In this document: in pieces, positions 1 to 38,032 of the stretch
Position numbering within the stretch: position 1 is the first letter of the stretch
Layout: every line of letters starts with the position of its first letter
Assembly (NCBI GenBank): GCA_040758355.1
Contig: JBFLWF010000004.1
Location: 32,001 to 96,000, forward strand
Reading direction: 5' to 3'
From: Nitrospirota bacterium
GTDB taxonomy: Bacteria > Nitrospirota > Thermodesulfovibrionia > Thermodesulfovibrionales > Dissulfurispiraceae
DNA: 64,000 bases
Notes under the pieces: generated by a model
Database searches by the model: none
What the model was told of the DNA's origin: nothing
Seen by the model: only the letters and a program-made list of their open reading frames with translations
Program-made: the position numbers and the translations under genes

Positions 1-224
1 TATCGGCTATATGCACGCATCTCGGCTGCATCGTGAATCAGGTAGATTGGGGATTCCTGTGTCCATGCCACGGCTCGAGATACAATGAGCATGGAAAGGT
101 CATTGGAGGTCCTGCACCGAGGAGCCTTGCATGGCTCGAGATAAGCGAGGCTATTGACGGCAGCCTTGAAGTTGACACGGCAAAGAGTGTTCCTGTCGGG
201 ACAAAGCTCAAACTTTATGCATAA
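1..224 (+). CDS. Rieske 2Fe-2S protein of a Rieske/cytochrome b complex (5' end outside window)
   Basis: Frame from nt 3 reads SAICTHLGC...CPCHGSRY...GPAP, i.e. both Rieske boxes; cytochrome b follows. Confidence 0.93.
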
Positions 225-244
225 AAAATAAAGAGGTCAAGGCT

Positions 245-1801
245 ATGAATGAAATGAAACAATCCGGAATCGATGTATTTAAACATAACATTAAGTCTTT
301 ACTGGGGTCGTTTGCAGGCTCCTATCTGAGAAGCGGCAAGCCCACATCCGACAAGTCGAGGGCGGCTGCAATGTTCAATAACTTTTTCCTCCATGTCCAG
401 GGGGTCAAGACGCACATAAATACCTTAAGACCGACTTATACATTGGGTCTGGGGCTTATATCCTTCTTCCTTTTGATCATCACCGTCATATCGGGCGTCC
501 TTCTTATGGTCTACTACAACCCATCGATAGAGCACGGGTATACCAGCGTAAAGGACATAAACTATGTGGTCTTTGCCGGCAAACTGATAAGGAATGTGCA
601 TAAATGGGCAGGCGAAGGAATGATAATCTTTGTCCTGCTGCACATGGCAAGGGTCTTCTACACAAGCTCATACAAAAAAGGAAGGGAATTCAACTGGGTT
701 GTCGGCATAGTACTGCTGATACTCACATTCGGAATCAACCTATCTGGTTATATGCTTCCATGGGATCAGCTTTCATACTGGGCATTGGTTATTGTTGCAA
801 ACATCATACAATCTCCAAAAGAGATCACAGACTCGCTGGGCATAACAAACTTCTTCGATATCGGCGGCTTCTCTAAAGAGCTATTCCTCGGCGGTTTAAC
901 TGCAGGCAAGGAATCCCTCACAAGGGTCTATCTACTCCATATAATGCTCTTTCCAATCTTTTTATTCATATTCCTCGGCGTGCATTTCTGGAGGATAAGA
1001 AAGGATGGAGGTCTCACAAAACCGGATGTGTTTGAGCCAAAGCCCATCGATGCAGGATTGGCAGCAATTCCTGAAAAAAGAGGAGGCATATTCCCTACAA
1101 ACAAGACATATGGCCTTATGGAGCTTGCCCATGGCAGGACGCCTGTTGTTGACAGGGATGTGGAAAACACCGTGCTCAGCTGGCCGAATCTCTTAATAGC
1201 AGAGGCAGCGTTGTTTGTATTCTGCCTTGCCGGCGTCACTGTTTATTCATTCTTTATAGACGCGCCGCTTAAAGAATTAGCTAATCCGATGATACCAGAA
1301 AACCCTGCAAAGGCGCCGTGGTATTTTCTTGGTCTTCAGGAACTTCTCTCATACTCTGCATTTATGGGCGGGGTAGGCCTTCCGGGATTGGCGCTCTTAG
1401 GGCTTGCACTTATACCGTATCTTGACAGGGAAGAACAGCATGTAGGAATCTGGTTTTCTAACAAACAGGGGAAGCGTGTTGCCATCGAGGCGCTGATTGC
1501 TGGCACGATTGTAGTAATCGGACTTCTTGCATTCGTGATAAATTTCGGATGGTTCAGGAACTGGTGGCCCAATGTTCCGCAGCTTTTAATCACCCTCATA
1601 AACCCGGGTAATATCTGGGTGGGCTTTATGATTGCGTGGTCGATTTATGTGATAAAGAGGACAGGTTCAACGAGGATGGGTGCAATAGCCTTATTCACGA
1701 TGTTCCTGATCAGCTTTCTGATTTATACATATGTAGGAACTGAATTAAGAGGGCCAAACTGGGATTTCTTCTGGTCGAAGAGCCAGTGGCCGGCTCATTA
1801 A
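245..1801 (+). CDS. petB: Cytochrome b (b6-like domain fused to subunit-IV-like domain) of a Rieske/cytb complex
   Basis: Heme His pairs RNVHKW...LLHMARV and LLHIM...GVHFW; GYMLPWDQ; APWY variant of the PEWY motif; many TM helices. Confidence 0.92.
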   Translation: MNEMKQSGIDVFKHNIKSLLGSFAGSYLRSGKPTSDKSRAAAMFNNFFLHVQGVKTHINTLRPTYTLGLGLISFFLLIITVISGVLLMVYYNPSIEHGYTSVKDINYVVFAGKLIRNVHKWAGEGMIIFVLLHMARVFYTSSYKKGREFNWVVGIVLLILTFGINLSGYMLPWDQLSYWALVIVANIIQSPKEITDSLGITNFFDIGGFSKELFLGGLTAGKESLTRVYLLHIMLFPIFLFIFLGVHFWRIRKDGGLTKPDVFEPKPIDAGLAAIPEKRGGIFPTNKTYGLMELAHGRTPVVDRDVENTVLSWPNLLIAEAALFVFCLAGVTVYSFFIDAPLKELANPMIPENPAKAPWYFLGLQELLSYSAFMGGVGLPGLALLGLALIPYLDREEQHVGIWFSNKQGKRVAIEALIAGTIVVIGLLAFVINFGWFRNWWPNVPQLLITLINPGNIWVGFMIAWSIYVIKRTGSTRMGAIALFTMFLISFLIYTYVGTELRGPNWDFFWSKSQWPAH

Positions 1802-1850
1802 TTAAGAGAGCAAGTGAGTGATCAAATTTTAAGATAAAAGAGGGAGAGAC

Positions 1851-3266
1851 ATGCGCAACAGGTTCTTTTTATGGATATTGTTTTTGTCCGGAGCAGTTCT
1901 CTTTGTTTTTACACTGATTGCTGCTTACAGGGAGATATCGCCTGAATGGAAGAGATATCAGGCGCAATACAAAGAGCAGATCATCAAACTCGCAAAAGAC
2001 GATGCAGTGAAAAAAAAGGCAAAGGAATTGGTTCCGGCAGTGCAGCAGATGTACCTTGGAGCCCTTAACAGGATTGACCGCTGCACGAGCTGCCATATAG
2101 GCGTCGAAAATCCGATGATGGCGAATGCCAAACTGCCGCTTAAGCAGCACAGCGGTGATTATTTAAAGAATCATCCACCTGATAAGTTTGGCTGCACTGT
2201 CTGCCATTACGGACAGGGCCGCGCCACAAACAAAAAAGAGGCGCATGCTGCAACCCGCGATACGCATTGGGACTTCCCGACCATGCCATTAAAGTATATA
2301 CAGAGTTCATGCACGCAATGCCATGATTACGAGATGCTGAGCGCAAAGGGCTATGACAATATCGTTAAGGGGGCAAAACTCTTCAGGGAAAAAGGGTGCA
2401 GGGGATGCCACAAACTAAATGGCATCGGAGGCGCTCTCGGCAAAAAGCTCGATGTTGTCGGCTCACAGCCGATTGCATACTTCCCGATGAGATTTGTCGA
2501 AGGCGACAAGACAACCTACAACTGGCACAAACAGCACTTCACCGATCCGAGGGCGCTTGTCCCGGAGAGCGAGATGAAGATCAATGTTAAGCCGGAGGAA
2601 ACGGATTTGCTGGCAACCTATGCGCTCTCACTCCGCGCAGGGGAGATGCCCAAAGATTACAGGAGAATAAAGGGTACAATGACTGTAGAAAAGCCCGACG
2701 AAGGCGAAGCGCTTTACAAGATGTTCTGCATCGCATGCCATACAGATGGCAAGGAGAGCTACTTTGATGAGATATTCAACCGCACAGTCCCTGCGATTAT
2801 GAAACCTGCGTTCTTAAAGACTGCCGATGAAAAGTACATCAAAAAGGTTATGGAAGATGGTCGTGCAGGCACACAGATGACCTCATGGAAGGCAACTGCC
2901 GGAGGACTTACCGATGCAGAGATTAACAAGATAATCACCTATATAACAAAGGATAGACCGGCTGCAAAACCCGAGAGGTTTGATTTTGCCGGATTTAAAA
3001 CGGATTTAAAACGCGGCGAAGATCTATACAATATCCGCTGTGCGCTCTGCCACGGCAAAAAAGGTCAGGGCGGTGAGGGATTCCTTGGGCTTAACCTGAG
3101 AAATCCTGTGGTGCAGGGCGCCGACCCCGAGTTTCTTGCCATAACGGTCAGGGATGGAAGGTCAGAGACATCCATGCCTCCATTCGGCAAAAAAGGCGTG
3201 GGGCTTACAGACCATGATATAGCAGATGTGGTCTCTTATGTAAAAACACTGTCAAAAAAGAAATGA
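1851..3266 (+). CDS. Membrane-anchored hexaheme cytochrome c
   Basis: N-terminal TM; six CxxCH (CTSCH, CTVCH, CTQCH, CRGCH, CIACH, CALCH). Confidence 0.9.
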   Translation: MRNRFFLWILFLSGAVLFVFTLIAAYREISPEWKRYQAQYKEQIIKLAKDDAVKKKAKELVPAVQQMYLGALNRIDRCTSCHIGVENPMMANAKLPLKQHSGDYLKNHPPDKFGCTVCHYGQGRATNKKEAHAATRDTHWDFPTMPLKYIQSSCTQCHDYEMLSAKGYDNIVKGAKLFREKGCRGCHKLNGIGGALGKKLDVVGSQPIAYFPMRFVEGDKTTYNWHKQHFTDPRALVPESEMKINVKPEETDLLATYALSLRAGEMPKDYRRIKGTMTVEKPDEGEALYKMFCIACHTDGKESYFDEIFNRTVPAIMKPAFLKTADEKYIKKVMEDGRAGTQMTSWKATAGGLTDAEINKIITYITKDRPAAKPERFDFAGFKTDLKRGEDLYNIRCALCHGKKGQGGEGFLGLNLRNPVVQGADPEFLAITVRDGRSETSMPPFGKKGVGLTDHDIADVVSYVKTLSKKK

Positions 3267-3300
3267 TTGAAATTAAATATAAAGTGTGAGAGGATTGGAG

Positions 3301-4059
3301 ATGAAAGTTAAAGTATTTGTATTGTCGGTTATTCTCTTAATGTCTCAACAAACAGTCTTTGGAGCAGAGGCTCAAAAGGGCGATTTAGGCAAGAAGGTTT
3401 ATGAAGAGCGCTGCCAGATTTGCCATGGCGCAAAAGGCGATGGCAAGGGACTGGTGGGCGTTATGAAGAGGTCGGAAAAGAGTGGAAGAATTATAAATGT
3501 AGAGGCGAGGGACTTTACCCTCGGTGTCTTCAGGTTCCGCACCACCTCAACCGGATGTCTGCCTGCAAATGAAGACCTTGTATCTTTAGTAAATAAGGGC
3601 ATTCCAAGGTCATTTATGCCGCCTCATAAAGACCAGCTTTCAATGGAAGAAAAGAAGGCTGTTGCCGACCATATAAAGACCTTTTCAACGAGGTGGAAAG
3701 AGGAAGAACCCTGCAAATCCATACCTGTAAAAAAACCAAAATGGGTTGGCAGTCGTTCTTCTGTTGAAAAGGGCAAAAAGATATATAAAGAGATGAAATG
3801 CTGGGAATGCCACGGCGATGATGGAAAAGGCAAAGGACCAAAGTCGGATACGATCAAAGACGACTGGGGAAAACCTATAGTGCCGTTTGATTTTACTACA
3901 GGCGCTACCAAGATGGGAGATGCCCCTGAAAATGTTTATACAGCATATACAACAGGACTTGACGGCACGGGTATGCCTTCATATGAGGACTCTCTGAAAG
4001 AGGACGAGAGATGGCATCTTGTCTCATATACGCTCAAATTGATGGGAAAGGTTAAGTAG
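3301..4059 (+). CDS. Periplasmic diheme cytochrome c (paralog 1)
   Basis: Signal peptide; CQICH and CWECH; ATG 3301 preferred over upstream GTG. Confidence 0.88.
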   Translation: MKVKVFVLSVILLMSQQTVFGAEAQKGDLGKKVYEERCQICHGAKGDGKGLVGVMKRSEKSGRIINVEARDFTLGVFRFRTTSTGCLPANEDLVSLVNKGIPRSFMPPHKDQLSMEEKKAVADHIKTFSTRWKEEEPCKSIPVKKPKWVGSRSSVEKGKKIYKEMKCWECHGDDGKGKGPKSDTIKDDWGKPIVPFDFTTGATKMGDAPENVYTAYTTGLDGTGMPSYEDSLKEDERWHLVSYTLKLMGKVK

Positions 4060-4218
4060 GGCCTCTGAAGGCCTTTATCTTACAGCACAAGGGGGTGAAT
4101 ATCGAAGAAAAAAGCACGGGGGAATTAGATTAAGGGGTAGCAGTATCTTTTAAACAGTCGGGTAAAAGGAGCAACAAACAGTATCAATAAAAATTGATAC
4201 AAACGGGGAGGCAGAAAA

Positions 4219-5004
4219 ATGAAAGATAATAGTAAAAAGTTAACGACTGCTACAATAATCTTTTTAATGCTTCTAACATTGATCGTTGGAGCAGTTGCTG
4301 TGGATGCAGCAGAGAATAAGACAATCGAGTTGGGCAAGAAGGTCTATGAAAAACGTTGTGTTATCTGCCACGGCCCTAAAGGCGATGGCAAGGGGCTGGT
4401 CGGCATCGTTCACAGGTACCAGAAGAGGGGTGCTGTACAGACTATTTTCCCGAGGGATTTTACAACAGGAGTTTATAGATTCCGCACAACTGCCACAGGT
4501 TGCCTGCCGACAAACGACGATCTTCTGAGAGTTGTAACAGGCGGTATTCCGAGGGCATACATGCCGTCTCATGAGGATGTGCCATTGGATGAAAGGAAAG
4601 CCGTCGCAGAGTATATCAAGACATTTTCAAAAAGGTGGAAAGAGGAAGAAGCGTGCAAGCCTTTTATCGTGAAAGCTCCCAAGTGGGTTGGAAATTCCGA
4701 ATCAACGGATAAAGGTAAAAAATTATACAAAGAGATGAAGTGCTGGGAGTGCCACGGCGAGCACGGCAAGGGTGACGGTCCCAAATCAGACAGGCTGAAA
4801 GACGACTGGGGAGATCCGATACTTCCATTTGATTTTACTACTGGTGCCCTTAAACTGGGGTTTGCTCCCGAAAATGTTTACACAGCATATACAACAGGAC
4901 TCGATGGTTCGGGCATGCCGTCTTATGAGGACTCAATGAGCGAGGAAGATAGATGGCATCTTGTATCGTATACCCTGATATTGATGGGACGCACCAAGAA
5001 ATAA
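4219..5004 (+). CDS. Periplasmic diheme cytochrome c (paralog 2)
   Basis: Signal peptide; CVICH and CWECH; collinear with 3301-4059. Confidence 0.88.
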   Translation: MKDNSKKLTTATIIFLMLLTLIVGAVAVDAAENKTIELGKKVYEKRCVICHGPKGDGKGLVGIVHRYQKRGAVQTIFPRDFTTGVYRFRTTATGCLPTNDDLLRVVTGGIPRAYMPSHEDVPLDERKAVAEYIKTFSKRWKEEEACKPFIVKAPKWVGNSESTDKGKKLYKEMKCWECHGEHGKGDGPKSDRLKDDWGDPILPFDFTTGALKLGFAPENVYTAYTTGLDGSGMPSYEDSMSEEDRWHLVSYTLILMGRTKK

Positions 5005-5042
5005 TTTCTTCATGAAACCGAGAAAAAGAAGGAGGTTTGGAA

Positions 5043-6899
5043 ATGTCTGAAAATAAAAATAAAGACAAAAAGCTTGACAGAAGAGGTTTTCTTAAATTTT
5101 TAGGCGTTGCCGGTGCTGCTGCAGGCGCAGGCATGATTACAAAGGAAATTATCCCGGATTCGGCAAAGAAGACCATTGTAGCAAAGGCTGAGGCTGCTGC
5201 CAACGGCAAGCAGAAGTATGAGGTAAAGCCCGGCGAGTATGATACACACTATGGCTTCTGGAGCGGAGGCCATTCGGGCGAGGTAAGGATTCTTGGTGTC
5301 CCTTCAATGCGCGAGCTCAAAAGGATACCGGTCTTTAACCTGGAGTGCGGCTCCGGCTGGGGATATACCAATGAGAGCAAGAAGCTCCTGAGAGGCGTTA
5401 CTGTTGGAGATACCCATCATGTCCACGGCTCTTATAAAAACGGCACATATGATGGCAAATACCTCTTTGTGAACGATAAGATCAACAACAGGGTTGCGAG
5501 GATAAGGATCGATTATATGGAGGTGGATGCGATACTTGAAGTGCCCAATATACAGGGAATGCACGGACTCTTCCCGCAGAGGCATCCAAAGACAGAATGG
5601 GTTGTTGTAAACAGCGAATTTCAGGTGCCTTTCCCCAACAGGCCGGAAGCGCCGCAAAAGGAGTATTATGGAGCACATACCATAATAGATGCAGAAAGGA
5701 TGGCAGTAATATGCCAGGTCATGATAGAGGAAAACCTTGACCTTGCTGCAACAGATTATCAGGGCAAATACTCGATGGCTACTTCCTACAACACGGAGCA
5801 GGGTGTTGTCATCTCAGAGATGCTCGCAGCCGACCATGACTACATGATTGTCTTTAACTGGGAAAGGATAAGGAATGCGCTGAAGAAAGGCAATTACAAG
5901 ACTATAAACGGCGTGAAGGTCATAGACGGAAGGAGGGGTAAATCCGACATAGTTTTAAGGATACCTGTTCCGAAGAACCCGCATGGCGTCAACATATCGC
6001 CTGACGGGAAATATGCTGTCTGCTCAGGAAAGGTCTCTCCGACATGTACGGTTGTCGACCTCTCAAAGTTGGACCTTGCCTATGCAGGAAAGATAAAGCC
6101 GGCAGAATGCGTAGTTGCAGAGCCGTTCATAGGGCTTGGTCCGCTGCATACAACATTTGACGGCAGGGGCAATGCCATAACATCCGTATTCATTGACAGC
6201 ACCAATGTGAAATGGAATATTGCCAAGGCAATTGAAGCAGAAAGGCAGGGACCCGAGGCAAAGAAGAAGAACCCGCATATTGTGGATGTCCTGGATGTCC
6301 ACTACCAGGTAGGACACATGATGGCATCAATGGCCGAGACAAAAGAGCCGGACGGCAAATGGCTCATATCGCTTAATAAGATGTCAAAGGACAGATTCAT
6401 CAATGTGGGCCCGCTGAAGCCCGAGTGTGAACAGCTTGTGGACTGTAGCGGCGACAAGCTCAAGATCGTTCATGACGGCTCGGCTTATATAGAGCCACAT
6501 GACGTTATCCTTGTGAGGAGGGATTTAATAGAGCCGCATGTAAAAGACCGTTACAATATGTTTGAACATCCACTTGCAACAACAAAGAGCGGGGTTGAGA
6601 GGAAGGGGAATGATGTTATTGTCAGAATGACAGCAAATGCCCCGATGTACGGGCTTCAGGAAGTCAGGGTGAAGAAAGGCAACAGGGTTACTGTCATTGT
6701 GACGAACAATGATGAGATATCCGATCTTACGCACGGCTTTGCCCTTGAACGCCACAACATCAGCTTTGTGGTCGCACCCTTCCAGACAAAATCAGCGACA
6801 TTCACAGCAGACAAGCCCGGCGTATACTGGGCATACTGCACAAACTTCTGCCATGCACTACACCTCGAGATGAGGATGAGGTTCATAGTGGAAGCATGA
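5043..6899 (+). CDS. nosZ: Nitrous-oxide reductase, Tat-exported
   Basis: RRGFLK signal; CuZ motifs DTHHVH, MHG, PKNPHG, GPLH, DVHYQVGH, EPHD; CuA HGF...CTNFCHALHLEM; AGGAGG 7 nt before ATG 5043. Confidence 0.97.
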   Translation: MSENKNKDKKLDRRGFLKFLGVAGAAAGAGMITKEIIPDSAKKTIVAKAEAAANGKQKYEVKPGEYDTHYGFWSGGHSGEVRILGVPSMRELKRIPVFNLECGSGWGYTNESKKLLRGVTVGDTHHVHGSYKNGTYDGKYLFVNDKINNRVARIRIDYMEVDAILEVPNIQGMHGLFPQRHPKTEWVVVNSEFQVPFPNRPEAPQKEYYGAHTIIDAERMAVICQVMIEENLDLAATDYQGKYSMATSYNTEQGVVISEMLAADHDYMIVFNWERIRNALKKGNYKTINGVKVIDGRRGKSDIVLRIPVPKNPHGVNISPDGKYAVCSGKVSPTCTVVDLSKLDLAYAGKIKPAECVVAEPFIGLGPLHTTFDGRGNAITSVFIDSTNVKWNIAKAIEAERQGPEAKKKNPHIVDVLDVHYQVGHMMASMAETKEPDGKWLISLNKMSKDRFINVGPLKPECEQLVDCSGDKLKIVHDGSAYIEPHDVILVRRDLIEPHVKDRYNMFEHPLATTKSGVERKGNDVIVRMTANAPMYGLQEVRVKKGNRVTVIVTNNDEISDLTHGFALERHNISFVVAPFQTKSATFTADKPGVYWAYCTNFCHALHLEMRMRFIVEA

Positions 6900-6911
6900 T
6901 TGTATAAACAA

Positions 6912-6947
6912 GAATTGGGGTCAGGAAATCGCTCCTGACCCCAATTC
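6912..6947 (+). terminator. Stem-loop after nosZ (terminator or mRNA stabiliser)
   Basis: GAATTGGGGTCAGGA / TCCTGACCCCAATTC perfect 15-bp inverted repeat. Confidence 0.7.
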
Positions 6948-7018: not shown

Positions 7019-8098
7019 ATGAGAAAAACCATACTATCACTAATATTCCTTTTTGTTTTCATTTACACAGGCATTGGGTACAGTGAGCAATGGAAACTGT
7101 TTGAACATAGATACAGCTATAAATTGGAGGATGTGCTTCAGGCATCGAAATTTGTACAGAAAAAGGGCTACTGGGAAGGTTACAAAGATAATAAACTCGT
7201 AGGTTATGTCTTTATATCCAAGGATTGGACGAGCAAATTGGTCGGTTATGCAGGTAAGCATCTCGAAACGCTTATCGGTATGGATACAAACGGAAACATT
7301 ACGGGCGTAAAACTTCTCTTTCACTCGGAGCCTATAGTCCTGATCGGCCTTAAAGAGGAGCATTATCTGGACTTTATAAAACAATATAAAGGGAAAAACA
7401 TAAAGAGCCCCCTGTCTGTGGGCAGGGAAATATCGATGGATGTCATTACAGGGGCTACGGTTACTGCTGTCGTTCAGAACTCGATAATCCTCGAGAGTGC
7501 GAGAAAGGTTGCCGATGCCACAGGCGTGCTGAAGGTTGCAAAAGGCAAAGGTCGGAAGCTCAGCCAGAAATATGCAGCGCTCACATGGGATGAACTGAAG
7601 AAATCAGGCGCACTTAAAAACATCGTGATAAGGCACAAAGACCTGGGAATCGAAGGCGAAGACCCCTTTCTCGACCTCTATGTCGGAGTTGCGACACAGC
7701 CTTCCATAGGCAGGAGTCTTCTCGGAGATGCTCTCTACAGGGATATCATGGGAAGGCTGAAGAACGGCGAATCTGCGATAGTCATATTTTCAAGAGGGAA
7801 AGGGTCGTTTAAAGGCACCGGATTTGTCCGCGGAGGCGTATTTGACAGATTTAATATTGAACAGGGCGCCAAGGTTCATATGCTGACGGACAAGGATTAC
7901 AGGGTCTTATCCGAACTCCATGCAAAGGGCGCTCCATCTATAGATGAAGGGGGCGTGTTCATTATCAGGGGCAGGGATTTTGATCCGACAGAGCCTTTTA
8001 AATTGAATCTTATACTCCCTTACCGTGTTTCTGTTGCCAAAAAGGAGTTCAAATCTTTTTATACGGAGTACGAGATTCCGGAGAGGTTTTTAGAATAA
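7019..8098 (+). CDS. NosR-like periplasmic FMN-binding protein (N-terminal half of NosR)
   Basis: Signal peptide; GYAGK, HSEPI, flavinylation motif DVITGATVT, SFKGTGFVRGGVFDR. Confidence 0.85.
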   Translation: MRKTILSLIFLFVFIYTGIGYSEQWKLFEHRYSYKLEDVLQASKFVQKKGYWEGYKDNKLVGYVFISKDWTSKLVGYAGKHLETLIGMDTNGNITGVKLLFHSEPIVLIGLKEEHYLDFIKQYKGKNIKSPLSVGREISMDVITGATVTAVVQNSIILESARKVADATGVLKVAKGKGRKLSQKYAALTWDELKKSGALKNIVIRHKDLGIEGEDPFLDLYVGVATQPSIGRSLLGDALYRDIMGRLKNGESAIVIFSRGKGSFKGTGFVRGGVFDRFNIEQGAKVHMLTDKDYRVLSELHAKGAPSIDEGGVFIIRGRDFDPTEPFKLNLILPYRVSVAKKEFKSFYTEYEIPERFLE

Positions 8099-8101
8099 TT
8101 C

Positions 8102-10366
8102 ATGTCATCGTTTAGCAGCTTATTAAAGCATATCTTCGAAGATACAATTGAGACACTGAAAATTATCCCATGGATGCAGATATGGGCGCAGAAATGGGCC
8201 TCGATTGCCGTCTTCGCAATATTCCTGTTCGCATTGATAATGATGATGGTTTTCAAGGACAGGCTTGCTAAAAACAGGAAGGTGCTGAATATAGTCGCTT
8301 ACGGTATACTGCCATTTTCGTTTATATATGTTGGACTCGTACTAAAGGCGCAGCCCACAACAACCAACATCGTTATATTGATCAATGGAATAAAAGAAGG
8401 GTCTTTTCCTTTAGGCCTCTTTATCATGGAGCCGTATATATTCCTGTCATTTCTCTTTATTCTTTTAACCATCCTTTTATGGGGCAGGGGCGTTTTCTGC
8501 GGCTGGCTCTGTCCATATGGTGCAATGGTTGAACTTTTAAATAAACTTTATGATAGGTTTTTCCGCAGATTCAGGTTGAGCCTTCCAGAGAAGATTCACT
8601 GGAAGCTTATTTACCTTAAATATGTAATATTCGCAATCATATTAGGCGTATCTTTCTACAACTTCATGCTTTCCGAATACCTTGCCGAGGTCGAACCCTT
8701 CAAGAGCTTTGTATTGAAACTTCACAGGCAGTGGTATTTTGTCCTTTATTTTATCCTGATAACAGCAGGCTCGGTAATAATATACAGGGCGTACTGTCGC
8801 TACCTCTGTCCCCTCGGCGCTGCTTTGAGCTTACCCTCATTCATTAAGTTGATACCTCTGATAAAACTCAAAAGACATGACACGTGTAGAATATGTAAGA
8901 TATGCGGCAGGAGCGAATGCAATTATCAGGCCATTACACCGCATGGCAATATTAAAGTTACCGAATGCCTTAGCTGTCTTGAATGTCAGATAAACTTCTG
9001 GGATGAGGACAAATGCCCTGCATTGATAAAAAAGAAAAAGGAGGGTCGCTCTACAGTCTTCAGCCTTTTACCGTTTGCTTTTTTAATTATATCTGCAATG
9101 CTATTTGTCCCTTCGCTGACATATGCAAAGGCTATAATTGTAGGGACCGATTATCGCACAATCGGCGATGCCCTGAAAAAGGCTAAAAATGGAGATGTCA
9201 TAGAGGTCAAGGCAGGAGAATACAGGGAGAGGCTTAAGATAGATAAGGCCGTGCATCTTAAGGGTATAAACAACCCTGCAATCATTGAAAGCGGAGGGCT
9301 TATAATCACGATAGCGGGCAGGGGCGTTACTGTAGAAGGGTTTACAATCAGAGACGAAAATCCAACATCCCAGTTAGAGAGCGCCGGGATATATATTTCC
9401 AAAGGTTCCGATGGGGCTGTTATAAAAAACAACCGCCTTTACAGCGTTATGCACGGCGTCTGGAGCGTTAGCGCCAGAGGCATAAGGGTGGAAAACAATT
9501 ACATCGAGAGCAAAAAGGATCTCGATAGGAACTACAGGGGTAATGGAATATATCTCGTAGACAGTCAGGAAGCAACTATTATAGGGAACAGAATGGATCA
9601 CTGCCGGGATGGAATGTACATAGAGGTTTCTCACGACGGGAAAATAATGGGCAATGATGTAACAAACTCCCGTTATGCAGTACACACAATGTGGGTGGAC
9701 AGGGTTGTTTTCTCTAAAAACAGGGCATCAGGCAATCTGGTTGGGTTTGCTATTATGTATTCAAAGCAATCCGAGATTACAGATAATATTGCTGTGGGCA
9801 ACAGCACGCACGGCATCCTTCTGATTCAGACTGTAAGGAGCTACATAGCAAGAAATACAGTAATAGGCAATACCAAAGGGGTCTACTTTTACAACTCGAT
9901 ATTTAACAACTTAGTCTCCAATCTTATAATGAATAATAGTCTTGGCCTGCATAACTGGGGAGGTTCCGAAGACAATGCCGTGAATAAGAATTCCTTTATC
10001 GGCAACGAGGTTCAGGTAAAGTTTGTTGCAGGCAGAAACCAGCAGTGGGATAATAACTACTGGAGCGATTATCTGGGATGGGATATGAACGCCGACGGCA
10101 TCGGCGATATGCCATTCGAATCCAATACAGTGGTTGACCATATCTTATGGAGATACCCTGCTGCCAAGTTGTTGTATGCAAGTCCTTCTTTCCAGTTTCT
10201 CTGGATGCTCGAAAAGCAGTTTCCGGTTCTGAAGGTTCCGAGGGTGTTTGATGCAAAACCATCCATGCTTCCGTTGCACAAAGACTGGAAGGAGTTAAAG
10301 GCCAAATATCCATACGCCCCTGAAAAATACTACGGTGAGATGGAAAAAATCCCTGTTGCCCATTGA
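8102..10366 (+). CDS. nosD: Fusion of NosR C-terminal membrane/4Fe-4S region with NosD
   Basis: GRGVFCGWLCPYG, EVEPFK, CRYLCPLG and CxxCxxC clusters; then beta-helix NosD with RGNGIYL, RYAVHTMW, NYWSDYLGWDMNADGIGD; one uninterrupted ORF. Confidence 0.88.
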   Translation: MSSFSSLLKHIFEDTIETLKIIPWMQIWAQKWASIAVFAIFLFALIMMMVFKDRLAKNRKVLNIVAYGILPFSFIYVGLVLKAQPTTTNIVILINGIKEGSFPLGLFIMEPYIFLSFLFILLTILLWGRGVFCGWLCPYGAMVELLNKLYDRFFRRFRLSLPEKIHWKLIYLKYVIFAIILGVSFYNFMLSEYLAEVEPFKSFVLKLHRQWYFVLYFILITAGSVIIYRAYCRYLCPLGAALSLPSFIKLIPLIKLKRHDTCRICKICGRSECNYQAITPHGNIKVTECLSCLECQINFWDEDKCPALIKKKKEGRSTVFSLLPFAFLIISAMLFVPSLTYAKAIIVGTDYRTIGDALKKAKNGDVIEVKAGEYRERLKIDKAVHLKGINNPAIIESGGLIITIAGRGVTVEGFTIRDENPTSQLESAGIYISKGSDGAVIKNNRLYSVMHGVWSVSARGIRVENNYIESKKDLDRNYRGNGIYLVDSQEATIIGNRMDHCRDGMYIEVSHDGKIMGNDVTNSRYAVHTMWVDRVVFSKNRASGNLVGFAIMYSKQSEITDNIAVGNSTHGILLIQTVRSYIARNTVIGNTKGVYFYNSIFNNLVSNLIMNNSLGLHNWGGSEDNAVNKNSFIGNEVQVKFVAGRNQQWDNNYWSDYLGWDMNADGIGDMPFESNTVVDHILWRYPAAKLLYASPSFQFLWMLEKQFPVLKVPRVFDAKPSMLPLHKDWKELKAKYPYAPEKYYGEMEKIPVAH

Positions 10367-10376
10367 GGTGAATTTA

Positions 10377-11273
10377 ATGCTTGAGTTAAGTGAAATATCG
10401 AAGAACTTCGGAGATGTAAAGGCAGTAGACTCTGTCTCGCTGAAGATGAAGGAAGGCGAGATGCTCGGTCTTGTGGGGCCCAATGGTTCCGGCAAGTCGA
10501 CACTGCTGAAGATAATGCTCGGAATTACAAGGCCGTCGTCAGGCAAGGTCCTTTTCAGCGGCAAAGAATTGGCAGAAAGGGATTGGAAGGAGATCAGAAA
10601 GAGAATAGGGTACATGCCAGAGAGGGTTAACTTTTATGACAACCTCACAGGAAAGGAGACCCTTGAGTTGTTTGCAAGAATCAAAGGAGGAAATCTTAAT
10701 AATATCTCTGAGCTATTAAAAAAGGTTGGCCTTGAGAATGCAGTTGACAGGAGGGTTGGAGGCTATTCCAAGGGGATGAGGCAGAGGCTGAACCTGGCAC
10801 AGGCATTGTCCAATGACCCTGACTTTTTAGTTCTCGATGAACCCACATCAGGGCTTGATCCTGTCGGGACAAAGGAATTCTACAGCATACTCGATGATGT
10901 AAGAACGAGGAAAAAGCTCACGGTCATCCTTTCATCCCATATACTGGCAGAGATTGAAGACAAGATAGACAGGGTCGCAGTGTTGAAGTCAGGATCTCTC
11001 AGGGCAGTGGGGAGTCTTGAAGAACTCTATTCCGGATTCAATCTCCCTTTAAAGATTTCAATAGCCCTTAAGGAAAGGAATGAATCTCTGGAAGATCTTT
11101 TGAAAAAGGAAGGGGCTATGGATATTGGATATAAAGAAGGCTATATTACAGCCAGCATTCAGAGGGAAGATAAACTGAGGCTGCTTTCGGCAGTAATGGA
11201 GAAAAAGGAAAGTTTTGTCGACCTTTCCATAAGAGAGCCGAACCTTGAGGAGGTATTCTTTGGTATTCACTAA
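10377..11273 (+). CDS. nosF: ABC ATPase NosF
   Basis: GPNGSGKS, YSKGMRQRL, LDEPTSGLDP; lies between nosD and nosY. Confidence 0.88.
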   Translation: MLELSEISKNFGDVKAVDSVSLKMKEGEMLGLVGPNGSGKSTLLKIMLGITRPSSGKVLFSGKELAERDWKEIRKRIGYMPERVNFYDNLTGKETLELFARIKGGNLNNISELLKKVGLENAVDRRVGGYSKGMRQRLNLAQALSNDPDFLVLDEPTSGLDPVGTKEFYSILDDVRTRKKLTVILSSHILAEIEDKIDRVAVLKSGSLRAVGSLEELYSGFNLPLKISIALKERNESLEDLLKKEGAMDIGYKEGYITASIQREDKLRLLSAVMEKKESFVDLSIREPNLEEVFFGIH

Positions 11274-12090
11274 TGCTATGAGGGCTATAGCCCATAAAGA
11301 ACTTTCCGATAAATTGAAGAGCAGGTGGGTCCTGGTGATTGCTGTGGGATTTGCTGCGCTCACCATTGTTATTTCATATTTTGGAGGGGCTACTGCAGGC
11401 GTTGCAGGGTTCAGGAGCATAGATGCAACCATTGCCAGTCTCACGAGCCTCGTAACCTACTTTATACCTATCTTAGCCCTCACCCTCGGCGGCGGAATAG
11501 TTGCGGATGAGCGTGATAAGGGCACGCTCGAGATATATCTATCGTCCCCTATATCCATCGGTGAATTCATCATGGGAAAATTCTTCGGCCTCGCCATTGC
11601 CCTCGCCATCTCCACACTTGTGGGTCTCGGCGTTTCCGGCGCAATATTGCTGATAAATCTGGGCTTCGGCGCAATAGGCAGTTACAGCATATTCATGCTC
11701 AACTCTGTAGTCCTCGGCCTTATTTTCCTGAGCGTCTCATTTTTAGTGTCCATTCTCTTCAATGAGAGGGCAAGGGTTATTGCCTTTACCGTATTCCTCT
11801 GGCTTTTCTTCGCAGTGCTTTATGACCTGGGTCTGGTGGGCCTTCTCATAATAACCAAAGGCACTGTCGGAAATGAAATATTTTCCACCCTCCTGACATT
11901 AAATCCAGTTGATGTGTATCGCATTCTGAACTTCTTATCCATCGGTGAACTCAAGGTGTTTTTAGGACTGGCATCTGTCGAGCTTCCGTCATACATGAAG
12001 ACGCCTGTCCTATGGGTCATATCGCTGCTGTGGGTGGTGCTGCCCCTTATTGCGAGCTATCGCCTCTTTAAAAGGAGATATCTGGCGTGA
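11260..12090 (+). CDS. nosY: ABC permease NosY (start TTG 11260 or ATG 11278)
   Basis: IAHKELSD, ERDKGTLE, GKFFG, LNPVDVYR; multi-TM. Confidence 0.88.
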   Translation: MVFTNAMRAIAHKELSDKLKSRWVLVIAVGFAALTIVISYFGGATAGVAGFRSIDATIASLTSLVTYFIPILALTLGGGIVADERDKGTLEIYLSSPISIGEFIMGKFFGLAIALAISTLVGLGVSGAILLINLGFGAIGSYSIFMLNSVVLGLIFLSVSFLVSILFNERARVIAFTVFLWLFFAVLYDLGLVGLLIITKGTVGNEIFSTLLTLNPVDVYRILNFLSIGELKVFLGLASVELPSYMKTPVLWVISLLWVVLPLIASYRLFKRRYLA

Positions 12091-12890
12091 AACAAAGAAT
12101 AAAAAACATGGAGGTTAGTATTGTGATTAAGTGTCTTGTAGGTGTTGTATCTGCCCTGCTGTTTTTTGCTGGTGCAGCAATGGGGCATGAGGTTGTGGAT
12201 GTTAAGAATGGTGCAACCATTAAAGGTGTGGTTAAGTTCAAGGGTACTATGCCGCCTGATGAGAGTATTGCCATTGACAGAAATGTGGAGGTCTGCGGAA
12301 AGGAGCAGAAGCTCAATAAATACACTATTACCAACTCGATGGTAAAGAATGTAGTCGTTTTTATAGATGAGCCGAAGAAGGGCAAGCCGATTCCTAAAAA
12401 TACAGCGGTTGCTCTCACCATAAATAAGTGCAGGGTAGAGCCGCTGGTAAGTGTTGGGTTTGTGGGCGGCAAGTTTTTACTCAGAAACGATGATGATATT
12501 CTTCACACTCTTCAGTTAAAGCTCTGGCTTGAGTATCAGAGAAGGGTTTCAGCAAGGCCATTAGAAAATGGCGCAACTATTTACAACATTGCCTTGCCGC
12601 TCAAGGGCAAAAAGATAGAGAAGCCCATAAAAGAATCTCATAGATACCAGCCGGATACAGGGGTCATCAGGGTGACGTCCAATTCCCATTCATGGATGAG
12701 GGGATATGTATTTGTATTTGACCATCCGTATGCAGCAGTGACCGATGAAAAAGGCTCCTTTGTAATAGACAACCTGCTGCCAGGCGAGTATGTCTTGAAG
12801 GTATGGCATGAAGGCTTTGGCTTTCAGGAAAAGAAGATAAAACTTTCACCCAATGAGACGGCAAATATCGAGATAGTGTATGAAAAATAG
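12087..12890 (+). CDS. Exported cupredoxin-like/carboxypeptidase-regulatory-like domain protein (paralog A)
   Basis: Signal peptide; NDDDILH, HSWMRGYV, HPYAAVTDEKGSF, WHE; start uncertain. Confidence 0.7.
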   Translation: MKQRIKNMEVSIVIKCLVGVVSALLFFAGAAMGHEVVDVKNGATIKGVVKFKGTMPPDESIAIDRNVEVCGKEQKLNKYTITNSMVKNVVVFIDEPKKGKPIPKNTAVALTINKCRVEPLVSVGFVGGKFLLRNDDDILHTLQLKLWLEYQRRVSARPLENGATIYNIALPLKGKKIEKPIKESHRYQPDTGVIRVTSNSHSWMRGYVFVFDHPYAAVTDEKGSFVIDNLLPGEYVLKVWHEGFGFQEKKIKLSPNETANIEIVYEK

Positions 12891-15287: not shown

Positions 15288-15333
15288 TGTGCAGGGCATT
15301 GTCCTGACGATTACTCAAACGAGGAGGAAGAAG

Positions 15334-16092
15334 ATGAAAAAGATGAAGAAGGTTTTTGCATTAGTTGTAGTTTTCTCTATGTTGCTTGCAGCAACCTCTT
15401 TTGCCTATGAGGTTGTGGATGTTAAGGGTGGAGGGAGCATTAAGGGTAAGATCAAGGCAACAGAAAAGATAAAAGACCCTGTAATCCCCATTAAGATCAA
15501 ACCAAAACCGGATCCAAAAGAGACCGAGCAGGAAAAGGCTACCTGCGGCGAAAGCCAGCAGGCAGGGATGTATATTATATCGGCTGCAAATGAGGTAAAG
15601 AATGTCTTTGTTATAGTAGAGGATGTGAAGAAGGGAAAGGCTGCGCCAAAGGCTGACCTCACAATCGACAACAATAAATGTTATTTTGTGCCGCTCGTAG
15701 GCATCACCTATAAAGGTTCTGATTTTATAGTGAAGAACAGCGACCCCCTTCTGCACAACACAAACCTTGGGCTAAAGCTCGATGACAAGAGAAGCACCGT
15801 GTATAATCTTGCCCTTCCGAGGAAGGATCAGGTCATAAAAAAGCCTGCAAGGAGAACAGGCCTTCACGAGGTGAAATGCGATGCCCATGAGTGGATGAGG
15901 GCATATGTATATGTTTCGGAGCATCCGTATGTAGCCATAACAGATGCAAGCGGCAGCTTCGAGATAAAGGACCTGCCTCCCGGAAAATACAAGGTAAGGA
16001 TATGGCATGAAGGATTCAAAGAGGTTACAAAGGATGTGGATGTATCCGCAGGCAAGGCTTCGGACCTGAGTGTGACTCTTACAAAGAAATAA
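15334..16092 (+). CDS. Exported cupredoxin-like/carboxypeptidase-regulatory-like domain protein (paralog B)
   Basis: GAGGAGG RBS; signal peptide; NSDPLLHN, KCDAHEWM, HPYVAITD, WHE. Confidence 0.75.
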   Translation: MKKMKKVFALVVVFSMLLAATSFAYEVVDVKGGGSIKGKIKATEKIKDPVIPIKIKPKPDPKETEQEKATCGESQQAGMYIISAANEVKNVFVIVEDVKKGKAAPKADLTIDNNKCYFVPLVGITYKGSDFIVKNSDPLLHNTNLGLKLDDKRSTVYNLALPRKDQVIKKPARRTGLHEVKCDAHEWMRAYVYVSEHPYVAITDASGSFEIKDLPPGKYKVRIWHEGFKEVTKDVDVSAGKASDLSVTLTKK

Positions 16093-16983: not shown

Positions 16984-17424
16984 ATGAAGAAGACATTCCT
17001 ATCAACATTAATATTTTTATTCACAGTGACGGTATTGACGGGATTTGTCTTTGCCGAAGGTAAAAAGGCAAAGGCTGCTAAGAGCACCTCTGCAAGCAAT
17101 ATCCTTTATGTATGCAACTGCGGTCCTGAGTGTAAGTGTAATACCGTATCGACAAAGACCGGCAAATGTGCATGCGGCGCCGAGCTTGTCCCGATGCATA
17201 TCCTGAAGATCGAAAATGACGAGGCCATACTCTGCACATGCGGCAAGGACTGCACATGCAAGCTTGATCCTAACGACCCTTCAAAGTGCGGCTGTGGAAA
17301 GCAGGTAAGAAGGGTCAGCATAAAGGGCATGTATGCGTGCAGTTGCGGCGCTGGCTGCGAGTGCAATACTGTGTCTGACAAGCCAGGCAAGTGCAAGTGC
17401 GGCGCTGATTTGAAAAAGATATAG
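16984..17424 (+). CDS. Exported Cys-rich metallothionein-like protein
   Basis: GAGGAGG RBS; signal peptide; 18 Cys as nine CxC in three repeats. Confidence 0.75.
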   Translation: MKKTFLSTLIFLFTVTVLTGFVFAEGKKAKAAKSTSASNILYVCNCGPECKCNTVSTKTGKCACGAELVPMHILKIENDEAILCTCGKDCTCKLDPNDPSKCGCGKQVRRVSIKGMYACSCGAGCECNTVSDKPGKCKCGADLKKI

Positions 17425-20803: not shown

Positions 20804-20906
20804 TTAAGGGACACACAATCCACATTTCGGGGCAATGATGTCCCATTTATCAGAGATGCATACCGTAATCTATAACCTATAGCCTTGTTTTTCAACGGCT
20901 TTTTTA

Positions 20907-20922
20907 TGGCATCTATTTTGCA
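20907..20922 (+). promoter_or_regulatory. Sigma54 -24/-12 promoter
   Basis: TGGCATCTATTTTGCA (GG-N10-GC). Confidence 0.6.
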
Positions 20923-20960
20923 ACGATATTGCATCGATGCCCTAAAACTGCAACTTCAAG

Positions 20961-20995: not shown

Positions 20996-21277
20996 ATGAG
21001 GCTGATTTCAGTAATAATTCTGATCGCCCTGAGCCTGTCGGTGATACCGCAGACGGTTGTTATACACCCATATGCCGGCACAGAGACGTCTATTTCGGTG
21101 CTTAATGTCTGCAACGGCTCCGGCACAGGCGTTCTGAGCAGCCTTGATATGCCATTTGTTAATGAATGTCCGTGCAAGCTTGTTCCATCGAGCTTTGCCG
21201 GTTTCCACGATATTCCAAATCCCATATTTAATCGATTCTTGGTAGCCTTTCAAAAAGAGCGCCCCCCTAAAGTCTAA
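20996..21277 (+). CDS. Putative metal-sensing leader/arrest peptide, copy 1
   Basis: Signal-like N-terminus, LNVCN, ECPCK, ends FQKERPPKV; paralog at 26965. Confidence 0.7.
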   Translation: MRLISVIILIALSLSVIPQTVVIHPYAGTETSISVLNVCNGSGTGVLSSLDMPFVNECPCKLVPSSFAGFHDIPNPIFNRFLVAFQKERPPKV

Positions 21278-26563: not shown

Positions 26564-26574
26564 AACTTTAATAT

Positions 26575-26702
26575 GCGGAAAACAAAGCATTTTCGCTTCA
26601 TTCTCGGCAGGCATCCAGCCTGCCTCCGAAGCAAAGACAGCCCGCTTAGGCATCCATGCCACGCTTGGGCTGTCCAAGTCGCTCCAATACTTTGTCTTCC
26701 GC
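26575..26702. repeat. Nested-palindrome dispersed repeat; partial inverted copy at 44839-44902
   Basis: Outer arms GCGGAAAACAAAG / CTTTGTCTTCCGC with inner hairpins; 55/64 identity to the second copy. Confidence 0.7.
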
Positions 26703-26827
26703 TTTGACTTGCGTAATTTATGAATTATAGGCTAAAAGAGGAGAAAATTGCGGCATAAATGTCACAGTGTGTTTGTGCAGGGGAATATGCCTTGCTGAAA
26801 ATAAAGCGTTTTTTCTCTGGTTTTAAT

Positions 26828-26843
26828 AGGCATAATATTTGCT
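26828..26843 (+). promoter_or_regulatory. Sigma54 -24/-12 promoter
   Basis: AGGCATAATATTTGCT (GG-N10-GC). Confidence 0.55.
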
Positions 26844-26964
26844 CTACACATATAATAATTTAATATTATTCTTTGGATTGAAGAAGTGCAGTTAGTTAAA
26901 TGGTAAGATTTTATAATTATAATTTGATATTGACATGGAAAGATTGCATAGTTTAAATTTCCAC

Positions 26965-31582: not shown

Positions 31583-32888
31583 AAGACTCGAAAGAATAAA
31601 AAAGACAACTGCGGTTCATCTCGCAATGGAGGCAAAGGATGCCCTGAAAAAGATAACAGAGGATTTCCCGGATAATCCTGATGCAATGGAATACTTTTAT
31701 TCCCTGCTTCATAAGTTTTATACAGATGGCGAGCTTTTTAAAGAGGGGGTTCGTGGGGTAGACAAAGTCTCCACCACGCTCATAGGAACGATGTGCATTC
31801 AGGTTCCTGAAGAGCTTATCTATGCAGCAGGAGCAAGACCGATAAGATTATGCAGCGGCGCTTACGCATATGATCAGACAGGCGCTGAATTCATGCCTGC
31901 GAAGTCATGCTCTCTGGTTAAGGCAACACTGGGGATGCTGAATATCAAAAATATGCCTTTCAAGGATTCATTGAGCGCCATAATAGTCTCTACAACCTGC
32001 GACCAGAAGAAAAAGGCGGCGGATATGCTAAAAGAAATGGGCTATAAGACATATACGCTCGAAATGCCTTCGGTAAAAGATACCGAGGAGGCGCGCTTTT
32101 ACTGGCAGAACTCGGTAAAGAATTTTGCATCTGCGATTGAGGATATATCCGGAAACAGGATTACAAAAAAAGGATTGAACGAAGCAGTGATGAAGACTAA
32201 CAGGGCAAGGGCTGAATTCAGGAGATTCAATAACTTCAGGAAGAGCGCACATCCGCTTATATACGGAAAAGACTCATTTGTTGTAGCCAATGCCTACTTC
32301 TTTGACGGCATCGAACAATGGACAGAGGCGCTTGCAAAACTCAACGCCGAACTCGAAGATAGAGACAATAGAGGGGTATCGGTTGCTAATAGGCATGCGC
32401 CGAGGATTTTGTTTACCGGCTCTCCTGCGATATTTCCAAATCTCAAGCTTCCTCTGCTTATAGAGCAGTCGGGCGGGGTTATCGTTGCCGATGAGGTATG
32501 CTCTTCTTCAAGGCTTCTGTATGACTCTGTGAGCTTCGATGAAGGCAATCTCTATGACATGATCCCTGCCATCGCAGACAGATATTTAAAGCCGTGCACC
32601 TGCCCATGTTTTGCGGAAAATGAAGACAGGAAGAGGAAACTGCTCGAAATGGTAAGAGGCTTTAATGTTGACGGCGTTGTGTATCAGGCATTTTCAGGAT
32701 GTCATCTATACGAGATGGAGCATAAGTCTGTAGGAAAATTGCTTGAAGCAGAAGGGGTTCCGATGCTCTATATAGAGACCGATTACAGCCCTGAAGATAC
32801 CGGACAGTTGTCCACGAGGATTGAGGCGTTCATGGAGTCTATTAAAAACAGGAAGAGAAGTAAATTGCAAGGAGGATGTGACAGGTGA
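31572..32888 (+). CDS. 2-hydroxyacyl-CoA dehydratase-family protein, double-cubane-cluster (DCCP)-like
   Basis: GTMCIQVPEELIYAAG, RLC, SC, TTCDQKKK, EVC, CTCPC, GCH, IETDYS, TRIEAF. Confidence 0.8.
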   Translation: MEIERLERIKKTTAVHLAMEAKDALKKITEDFPDNPDAMEYFYSLLHKFYTDGELFKEGVRGVDKVSTTLIGTMCIQVPEELIYAAGARPIRLCSGAYAYDQTGAEFMPAKSCSLVKATLGMLNIKNMPFKDSLSAIIVSTTCDQKKKAADMLKEMGYKTYTLEMPSVKDTEEARFYWQNSVKNFASAIEDISGNRITKKGLNEAVMKTNRARAEFRRFNNFRKSAHPLIYGKDSFVVANAYFFDGIEQWTEALAKLNAELEDRDNRGVSVANRHAPRILFTGSPAIFPNLKLPLLIEQSGGVIVADEVCSSSRLLYDSVSFDEGNLYDMIPAIADRYLKPCTCPCFAENEDRKRKLLEMVRGFNVDGVVYQAFSGCHLYEMEHKSVGKLLEAEGVPMLYIETDYSPEDTGQLSTRIEAFMESIKNRKRSKLQGGCDR

Positions 32889-37967: not shown

Positions 37968-38032
37968 ACATATATTAAAATAAATAAAGTTATATGCTGG
38001 TTGCGGCATTATTGCCCCAAAATGTAGACTAA

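Follow-up and report, generated by a model that had tools for sequence, protein, structure and literature searches.

A nosZ operon of a Nitrospirota bacterium encodes a Rieske/cytochrome b complex with a predicted NAD-linked flavoprotein subunit and adjoins a candidate corrinoid-based regulator

The DNA analysed here is a stretch of 64,000 nucleotides (the window) from the genome of a Nitrospirota bacterium (GCA_040758355.1; 2.77 Mb, 99% complete). It covers positions 32,001 to 96,000 of contig JBFLWF010000004.1 (C4; window coordinate = C4 minus 32000) and opens within an operon in which genes of a Rieske/cytochrome b complex precede nosZ, the gene of nitrous oxide (N2O) reductase. On the + strand lie the last 224 bases of a Rieske [2Fe-2S] protein gene (1..224; whole gene C4:31748-32224, starting 252 bases before the window), followed by the genes for cytochrome b (245..1801), a membrane-anchored hexaheme cytochrome c (1851..3266), diheme cytochrome c 1 (3301..4059), diheme cytochrome c 2 (4219..5004) and NosZ (5043..6899). 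They are tightly packed, with successive gaps of 20, 49, 34, 159 and 38 base pairs (bp). The gene set and common orientation given in a preliminary description of this DNA, based on the sequence alone, are thus confirmed, as is its count of ten haems (6, 2 and 2 CxxCH motifs). The first gene of the operon, about 2 kb 5' of the window (C4:29920-31755), was missed in that description. It encodes a 611-residue NfnA/GltD-like protein of the flavin adenine dinucleotide (FAD)/iron-sulphur (Fe-S) type, hereafter the flavoprotein, and overlaps the Rieske gene by 8 bp. A scan found no terminator-like intergenic site 5' of nosZ, the sigma70 and terminator scans being at chance level overall (19 versus 18.5 and 8 versus 10.2, respectively). 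After nosZ, a strong hairpin of 15-16 bp (6912..6947, + strand) may serve as a terminator or an mRNA stabiliser.

The Rieske protein carries a twin-arginine translocation (Tat) signal, sequence motifs (14 protein letters, not shown) and the Ser-Tyr signature of a high-potential cluster. Cytochrome b (518 residues) consists of a b6 part fused to a subunit-IV part and contains the sequence PAKAPWY with the APWY Qo motif, the haem-b ligands H119, H133, H232 and H247, two additional histidines (H50 and H57) and a KTYGLM linker at residues 287-292. Eight hydrophobic segments exceed the threshold; H50 was matched to an interface-haem histidine by spacing alone. NosZ is of clade I: it has a Tat signal, CuA and CuZ motifs and an accompanying nosR, and scores 815.7 bits with TIGR04244 (cut-off 625) against 482 bits with the clade II model.

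The subunits of the complex were compared with solved relatives. The best solved relative of the Rieske protein is Kuste4569 of Kuenenia stuttgartiensis (9RK4, E 8.5e-23), ahead of the b6f Rieske proteins, and the flavoprotein has its best match in both sequence and fold in NfnABC (9BOV/9BP5), the homologue used for Kuste4570 (PMC12954380). The FAD and nicotinamide adenine dinucleotide (NAD) motifs and the Fe-S cysteines are kept, consistent with FAD and four Fe-S clusters. Of 64 sequences, 47 have Glu at the end of the second Rossmann strand, 5 have Arg-Glu and 1 has YRR (11 unparsed), and we take this Glu as a presumed sign of NAD over NADP. K88, invariant in 63/63 sequences, plausibly matches a buried lysine described in PMC12954380; R584 is invariant as well.

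Features of canonical bc1 and b6f complexes are missing: the motif is APWY (45/45 near rows) and not PEWY, a hexaheme protein stands in place of c1 or f, and the cysteine for haem ci is absent from 123/123 aligned cytochromes b, which have Thr, Ser or Pro there. H50 is kept in 122/123 and R252/K253 in 123/123, at a spacing of 202-203 residues, where the pairs His62/Arg266 and His43/Arg247 of the anammox models are 204 apart; this equivalence is one of spacing, the Kuenenia cytochrome b and flavoprotein sequences not being identified among the matches. An NAD(P) oxidoreductase, a Rieske protein of the Kuste4569/Kustd1480 type and a hexa-/octaheme cytochrome c are common to both types, the last as a likeness in kind and not as a homology comparison with the Kuenenia multihemes. 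Their split b6/subunit IV with covalent haem cN is replaced here by the fused protein. Because of this fusion and the absent haem ci cysteine, we regard the complex as related to the NAD(P)-linked complexes of anammox bacteria and as probably working like them, without being a strict member of their type.

The relation between flavoprotein and cytochrome b was followed in 120 module loci, 31 of which were set aside: 21 were duplicates, 4 had too little DNA on the upstream side, 4 were truncated and 2 had no cytochrome b. The flavoprotein gene lies 5' of cytochrome b in 73 of the 89 scorable loci, which belong to several phyla. All 73 have the cytoplasmic linker, with KTYGLM exact in 66 and as a variant read by eye in 7. 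Where the flavoprotein is lacking, the linker is deleted in 14 of 16 loci, in about four separate lineages, and kept in two Capsulimonas loci; at L070 a broken flavoprotein tail stands before the Rieske gene and the linker is gone. When the rule was applied to four further genomes, three proved to be sequences already in the set and the fourth (L138), close kin of two earlier loci, fits. Since the loop is lost where the flavoprotein is lost, it points to a docking site for the flavoprotein on cytochrome b, and on this pattern the flavoprotein is very probably a true subunit, docked through KTYGLM.

These results bear on the energetics. The preliminary description had proposed a self-contained, proton-motive quinol:N2O respiratory chain; a quinol-oxidising complex of its own at nosZ is upheld, and a plain proton-motive Q-cycle is made doubtful by the NAD-type Fe-S flavoprotein at the head of the operon and by the missing haem ci cysteine. 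A dedicated, ordinarily Q-cycling complex, in which the flavoprotein would be an optional accessory or regulator, agrees with the 16/89 loci that keep the core genes without it, with the conservation of all four b-haem histidines and with Wolinella, where a bc complex is reportedly needed for N2O respiration. The retained Fe-S cysteines and FAD/NAD motifs of the flavoprotein, the disappearance of the loop along with it and the absence of the usual negative-side quinone features make such a complex improbable.

The complex at nosZ is not the only one in the genome, in which exactly two cytochromes b and two Rieske proteins were matched. The other pair (contig C2:65266-66892) comprises a Rieske gene and split b6/subunit IV genes, without a cytochrome c gene, and follows cmk-ispH-rpsA-sppA-ihfB. 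Its motifs are YCLGG, PEWY and a Gly-Tyr Rieske signature, and 13 of 15 relatives tested have a 64-100% ortholog. By these features the C2 pair is the housekeeping copy and the nosZ-linked one the extra, as the preliminary description had supposed; it had named a sole copy in the genome, together with transcription independent of nosZ and N2O, as the finding that would undo its model, and the first of these does not apply. The genome encodes futalosine-type menaquinone synthesis, while the nosZ-linked Rieske protein has the Ser-Tyr signature and the housekeeping one Gly-Tyr. It also encodes acetyl-CoA synthase, complex I subunits, Rnf, cNor and a periplasmic nitrate-reductase-like enzyme (pNar); neither a NirS-quality match nor a cbb3-like oxidase match was found in it.

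We then surveyed 301 genomes of the class Thermodesulfovibrionia, in which Tat-type NosZ is prevalent according to a paper whose main text does not contain the word Rieske (PMC11033732). Thirty genomes have a nosZ close to the present one, and three have only a distant, clade II-like nosZ (two confirmed as Sec-type). In 15 of the 30 an ortholog of the cytochrome b gene lies upstream of nosZ in the same run and on the same strand, more often than chance would give; in 10 it lies elsewhere or on another contig, and in 5 none was found. The ortholog is thus present in 25/30 nosZ genomes compared with 14/271 others, kin among them not being independent. Diheme 2 directly precedes nosZ in 29/30 genomes, even without the complex, the remaining nosZ being at a contig start, and for this reason it is the likely NosZ donor. 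Diheme 1, 65% identical to it, accompanies the Rieske module 3' of the hexaheme gene. The ten haems, previously described as one chain, therefore fall into two units. A perfect 8-bp inverted repeat shortly 5' of diheme 2 (4177-4200) is identical in G078, a genome of another genus; its orientation is wrong with respect to the FNR consensus, and it was rejected as an FNR site.

The module is not bound to N2O as a type, contrary to the preliminary description. Among 38 close loci, nosZ follows the module in 9 and a cbb3-like oxidase follows it in 5, while in another 7 the module surrounds a periplasmic nitrate-reductase-like enzyme of dimethyl sulfoxide (DMSO)-reductase type II; the others are truncated or have no such reductase 3', except for one Nap-like cluster read by eye. 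The partner types are interspersed on a quick tree of cytochrome b. Since partners swap across loci and tree, the module reads as a plug-in donor for high-potential acceptors, wired here to NosZ. The block also appears mobile. Compared with the genome under study, G078 shows 89-95% protein identity over sensor, complex, dihemes, NosZ and the N-half of NosR, and 87-93% DNA identity over about 17 kb, whereas RpsA is only 77% and the housekeeping cytochrome b6 85% identical, and four genomes of the same genus (RpsA 84-97%) have neither nosZ nor the ortholog. The simplest reading of both observations is a recent block transfer.

Swapping partners, the ortholog in 14/271 genomes without this nosZ type, the apparent recent transfer and the presence of pNar and cNor elsewhere in the genome could describe a general high-potential donor, serving pNar, cNor or other c-type acceptors and lying beside nosZ only because both share a transferred island, with NosZ supplied by NosR and diheme 2. 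The single predicted promoter with no terminator found 5' of nosZ, the nosZ linkage in 15 genomes of several families and the excess of the ortholog among nosZ genomes, with the reservation about kinship made above, speak against this explanation, which we consider highly improbable; it is compatible with electron delivery to NosZ and so not exclusive.

The complex does not stand in for NosR, since NosR is still encoded. Downstream of nosZ (7019..12090, + strand) lie the N-half of nosR with the FMN motif, the C-half of nosR fused to nosD, nosF and nosY, and two nosL genes follow 3' of nosFY. The split (7019-10366) thus joins the membrane/Fe-S half of NosR to NosD; a single continuous match of 730-800 residues indicates the same fusion in L120, L122, L126, L158, L160, L164 and L176, and the two are separate in other relatives.

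In our proposal, one sigma54 operon encodes NosZ together with a menaquinol-oxidising, anammox-related Rieske/cytochrome b complex. The gene set, the cofactor motifs and the linkage of the complex with nosZ are established at the level of the sequence. Quinol would be oxidised at the APWY Qo site, and its first electron would pass from the Rieske protein through the hexaheme, diheme 1 and diheme 2 to CuA of NosZ, a route that we consider likely. With the KTYGLM loop holding the flavoprotein at the cytoplasmic face, the second electron would cross the membrane via the b haems, perhaps with a His50-ligated haem at the dimer interface, and reach NAD+ through an Fe-S wire and FAD. N2O respiration would thereby supply NADH to a Wood-Ljungdahl organism and not run a full Q-cycle. 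By analogy with the anammox complexes, reduction of NAD+ by the low-potential branch is the most likely single option, with a probability of roughly 0.4. That the partners adjoining the module in the surveyed loci are high-potential acceptors counts in its favour.

Several observations weigh against this proposal. The cytochrome b ortholog is missing or lies elsewhere in the nosZ genomes counted above (5/30 and 10/30), and Verrucomicrobiota, Chloroflexota and Acidobacteriota have the module too, its carriers there being mostly heterotrophs with little need for reverse flow. Complex I and Rnf are already encoded in the genome. At assumed potentials, bifurcation to a +300 mV Rieske cluster and NAD+ comes to -12 kJ/mol, and to +2 kJ/mol when the passage of one charge across 150 mV is included. 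It is therefore near equilibrium at the Rieske protein and would work only where N2O holds the high branch in the oxidised state. Two features are not diagnostic of NAD+ reduction and were set aside: the Rieske potential signature, which is the same with and without flavoprotein (Ser-Tyr or Ser-Phe in 14/14 scored loci lacking it), and H50, which was tried as a flavoprotein marker and is kept in both groups.

The same docking and linkage evidence would fit the same subunits with the flow reversed, the flavoprotein oxidising NADH into cytochrome b and quinone being reduced on the negative side (an activated Q-cycle), as a compact NADH-to-quinone-to-N2O unit. This direction is thermodynamically downhill and suits the wide occurrence of the module in probable heterotrophs. 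The missing haem ci cysteine argues against it, as does Arg252, which we take to occupy the position of the Qi histidine of bc1. A rebuilt quinone site could consist of the conserved residues Glu320 and His57, a His/Glu pair being noted in PMC12954380; such a unit would be energy-wasteful where complex I exists (same source), and complex I genes are present here. Altogether, we regard NADH input as rather unlikely.

The preliminary description, right in outline, had overlooked a putative vitamin B12-type sensor besides the flavoprotein. Its genes lie upstream of the window: a corrinoid protein (C4:22776-23432), an MtaA-like protein (C4:23444-24460), a DUF1638 protein (C4:24468-25082), a RACo-type activase (C4:25079-26776), a soluble GAF kinase (C4:26724-28175) and a sigma54 activator (C4:28159-29541). 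Activator palindromes at C4:29532 and C4:29642 and a sigma54 box at C4:29723 stand upstream of the flavoprotein gene. In this putative promoter a -24/-12 box is accompanied by activator sites 5' of it and by a matching enhancer-binding protein. An FNR-type box ahead of the flavoprotein gene was sought without success in the close relative G078 and in 45/46 other rows. A Crp/Fnr gene lies 5' of the cassette (C4:21976-22683), and in many cassette-less relatives such a gene directly precedes the flavoprotein.

The palindrome was defined from the present genome and G078 and scored out of 14. It reaches at least 12/14 within 320 bp upstream of a sigma54 box at 8 of 10 other cassette loci, the other two scoring 11. 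As for specificity, 51 such sites occur in the 2.77 Mb genome and 1 of 3 control loci without the cassette has a match. When 12 sites from other loci, none of them in these two genomes, were combined into a matrix, the two sites of this promoter ranked first and second in the 2.77 Mb. Of the five best-ranked sites, three are followed by a sigma54-like box at a distance of 80-82 bp. Inside the window, a second activator site with such a box 80 bp downstream (20828..20925, + strand) lies ahead of a leader-peptide/heavy-metal ATPase operon (at 20996), and a third with the same arrangement (26749..26845, + strand) lies ahead of a leader-peptide operon (at 26935), the next gene of which looks TonB-dependent receptor-like by eye. 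At three loci palindromes precede a Crp/Fnr gene, with an imperfect sigma54 box. On this evidence the corrinoid-linked kinase and sigma54 activator probably drive the nos operon and the two metal-transport operons. A weaker palindrome site at window position 38002 has a sigma54 box only at 305 bp. Between the corrinoid and MtaA-like genes of G078 there is a dispersed repeat of about 130 bp, with many sites in the present genome, one of them at about 26570-26705 of the window.

MtaA-like orthologs (at least 45%) occur in 12/301 genomes and lie within about 14 kb of nosZ in 9. Of these nosZ-linked cassettes, two stand at clade II clusters and two at clade I clusters that lack the Rieske module; the cassette travels with nosZ at L159, L161, L160, L158, L182 and L183. 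In G130 nosZ is on another contig, and the palindrome is found in the region upstream of it. Six metagenome matches of at least 55% reached nosZ in two cases and the Rieske module in one, three being too short. The zinc site of MtaA (His-x-Cys...Cys) is not preserved: all 12 rows of the nos group have Ser-Ile-Ala/Thr, and the protein scores 186 bits with TIGR01463 (cut-off 235). With two of the three ligands missing, MtaA-type catalysis is unlikely. In L125 (genome G010), both nosZ and the MtaA-like gene are broken in two (L125:13908-15129 and L125:919-1931), by frameshift or assembly error.

N2O oxidises cob(I)alamin, and this chemistry suggests a way of sensing. The cassette is a candidate cobalamin-based sensor of N2O or another oxidant, in which the signal would be oxidation of cob(I)amide by N2O itself. 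This identity of the signal is tentative: since sister cassettes precede an ACIII/Qrc-like operon, a broader oxidant or N-oxide signal is about as likely. These sister cassettes (L184:6536-11184 and L193:7184-12645; WLNITG type) share the palindrome and weigh against an N2O-specific sensor. So do the cassettes before the nitrate-reductase version of the module in G252 and L038, both without nosZ, and the cassette of G180, which also lacks nosZ; with three such genomes, N2O specificity is not established. The two nitrate-linked cassettes nest inside the nos-linked clade. Taken as a whole, a complete transferable N2O-respiration island, in which a Co(I) corrinoid held by an ATP-driven activase would sense N2O and the induced complex would split quinol electrons between NosZ and NAD+, is distinctly improbable, its parts being graded above.

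Other features of the window and of related loci are recorded here. Two paralogous secreted carboxypeptidase-regulatory-like proteins are encoded at 12087-12890 and 15289-16092; in several relatives an ortholog lies between both diheme genes, and likewise in cbb3-linked loci. Between the two nosL genes, 16984-17424 encodes a small exported Cys-rich protein with repeated CxC and no Pfam match, possibly a copper buffer. L138 and L060 have a complex without flavoprotein and loop, a different Tat molybdoenzyme 5' and a pentaheme fusion 3'; the loop is missing at L077 as well. Two Magnetobacterium loci carry a tandem second Rieske gene (L063:9528-9980 and L066:9527-9979); one Rieske protein of each pair has the lower-potential Ala-Phe signature, and the second gene has no evident Tat signal.

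NosZ is the known biological sink of N2O, and electron delivery and N2O detection decide whether an organism acts as such a sink. Through its gene content, this operon points to a high-potential acceptor of a type of complex whose quinol-to-NAD(P)H mechanism has been proposed, not shown, in anammox bacteria, and the predicted docking loop and the conserved residues offer targets for mutation. The corrinoid cassette is a concrete candidate for N2O sensing; it accompanies nosZ of either clade and appears to bring metal uptake under the same control. A literature search, mostly of titles and abstracts and with few subscription journals, yielded no paper on nos operons that encode an NAD-linked Rieske/cytochrome b complex, nor on corrinoid-based regulation of nosZ.

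Electron-transfer genes placed in, or needed for, a nos cluster are said to occur also in the Wolinella Qcr/NosGH chain. The preliminary description had held extra cytochrome genes to be more typical of clade II nos clusters; Rieske and b/c cytochrome genes are indeed already known from the clade II clusters of Desulfosporosinus and Desulfitobacterium (PMC11096178). Here, in contrast, NosZ is of clade I and Tat-dependent, and NosR is retained; the available text of that paper mentions no flavoprotein.

The sensor cassette shares a corrinoid protein, a UroD-fold partner and an activase with MtaA/MtaC plus RACo, the mec cassette (PMC9768040), in which a two-component system is present besides, and type 1 mlp clusters (PMC10418091). 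It differs from these corrinoid methyltransferase cassettes in its single MtaA-like protein without two zinc ligands, the absence of a substrate methyltransferase, its fixed place before a kinase and sigma54 activator, and its predicted sites at respiratory operons.

The complex resembles the APWY clade, uncharacterised as of 2014 (Kao and Hunte, PMC4122944), and subfamily G/G' (Dibrova et al., PMC5600118) in the APWY motif, high-potential Rieske protein, long cytochrome b without CxGG, oxidoreductase neighbour and operons without assigned function. Reverse operation from a high-potential donor was proposed for those complexes, and no link to N2O was found in the available text; here, the neighbour is a terminal reductase. 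The closest likeness in our comparison is to Kuste4569-4574 and Kustd1480-1485 of K. stuttgartiensis, for which it has been proposed that quinol is bifurcated to NAD(P)+ and that the dimer interface houses an additional haem (PMC12954380). Both have an NfnA-fold NAD(P) oxidoreductase, a high-potential Rieske protein, a b6-like cytochrome b with an extended subunit IV (putatively so in the present complex), a multiheme c in place of c1/f, a candidate interface His with Arg/Lys and a menaquinone host. In the present complex, cytochrome b and subunit IV are fused and there is no attachment cysteine for haem cN/ci. No acceptor is proposed for Kustd1480-85 in the text available, whereas the operon described here names NosZ, in a host that is a Nitrospirota anaerobe and not an anammox bacterium.

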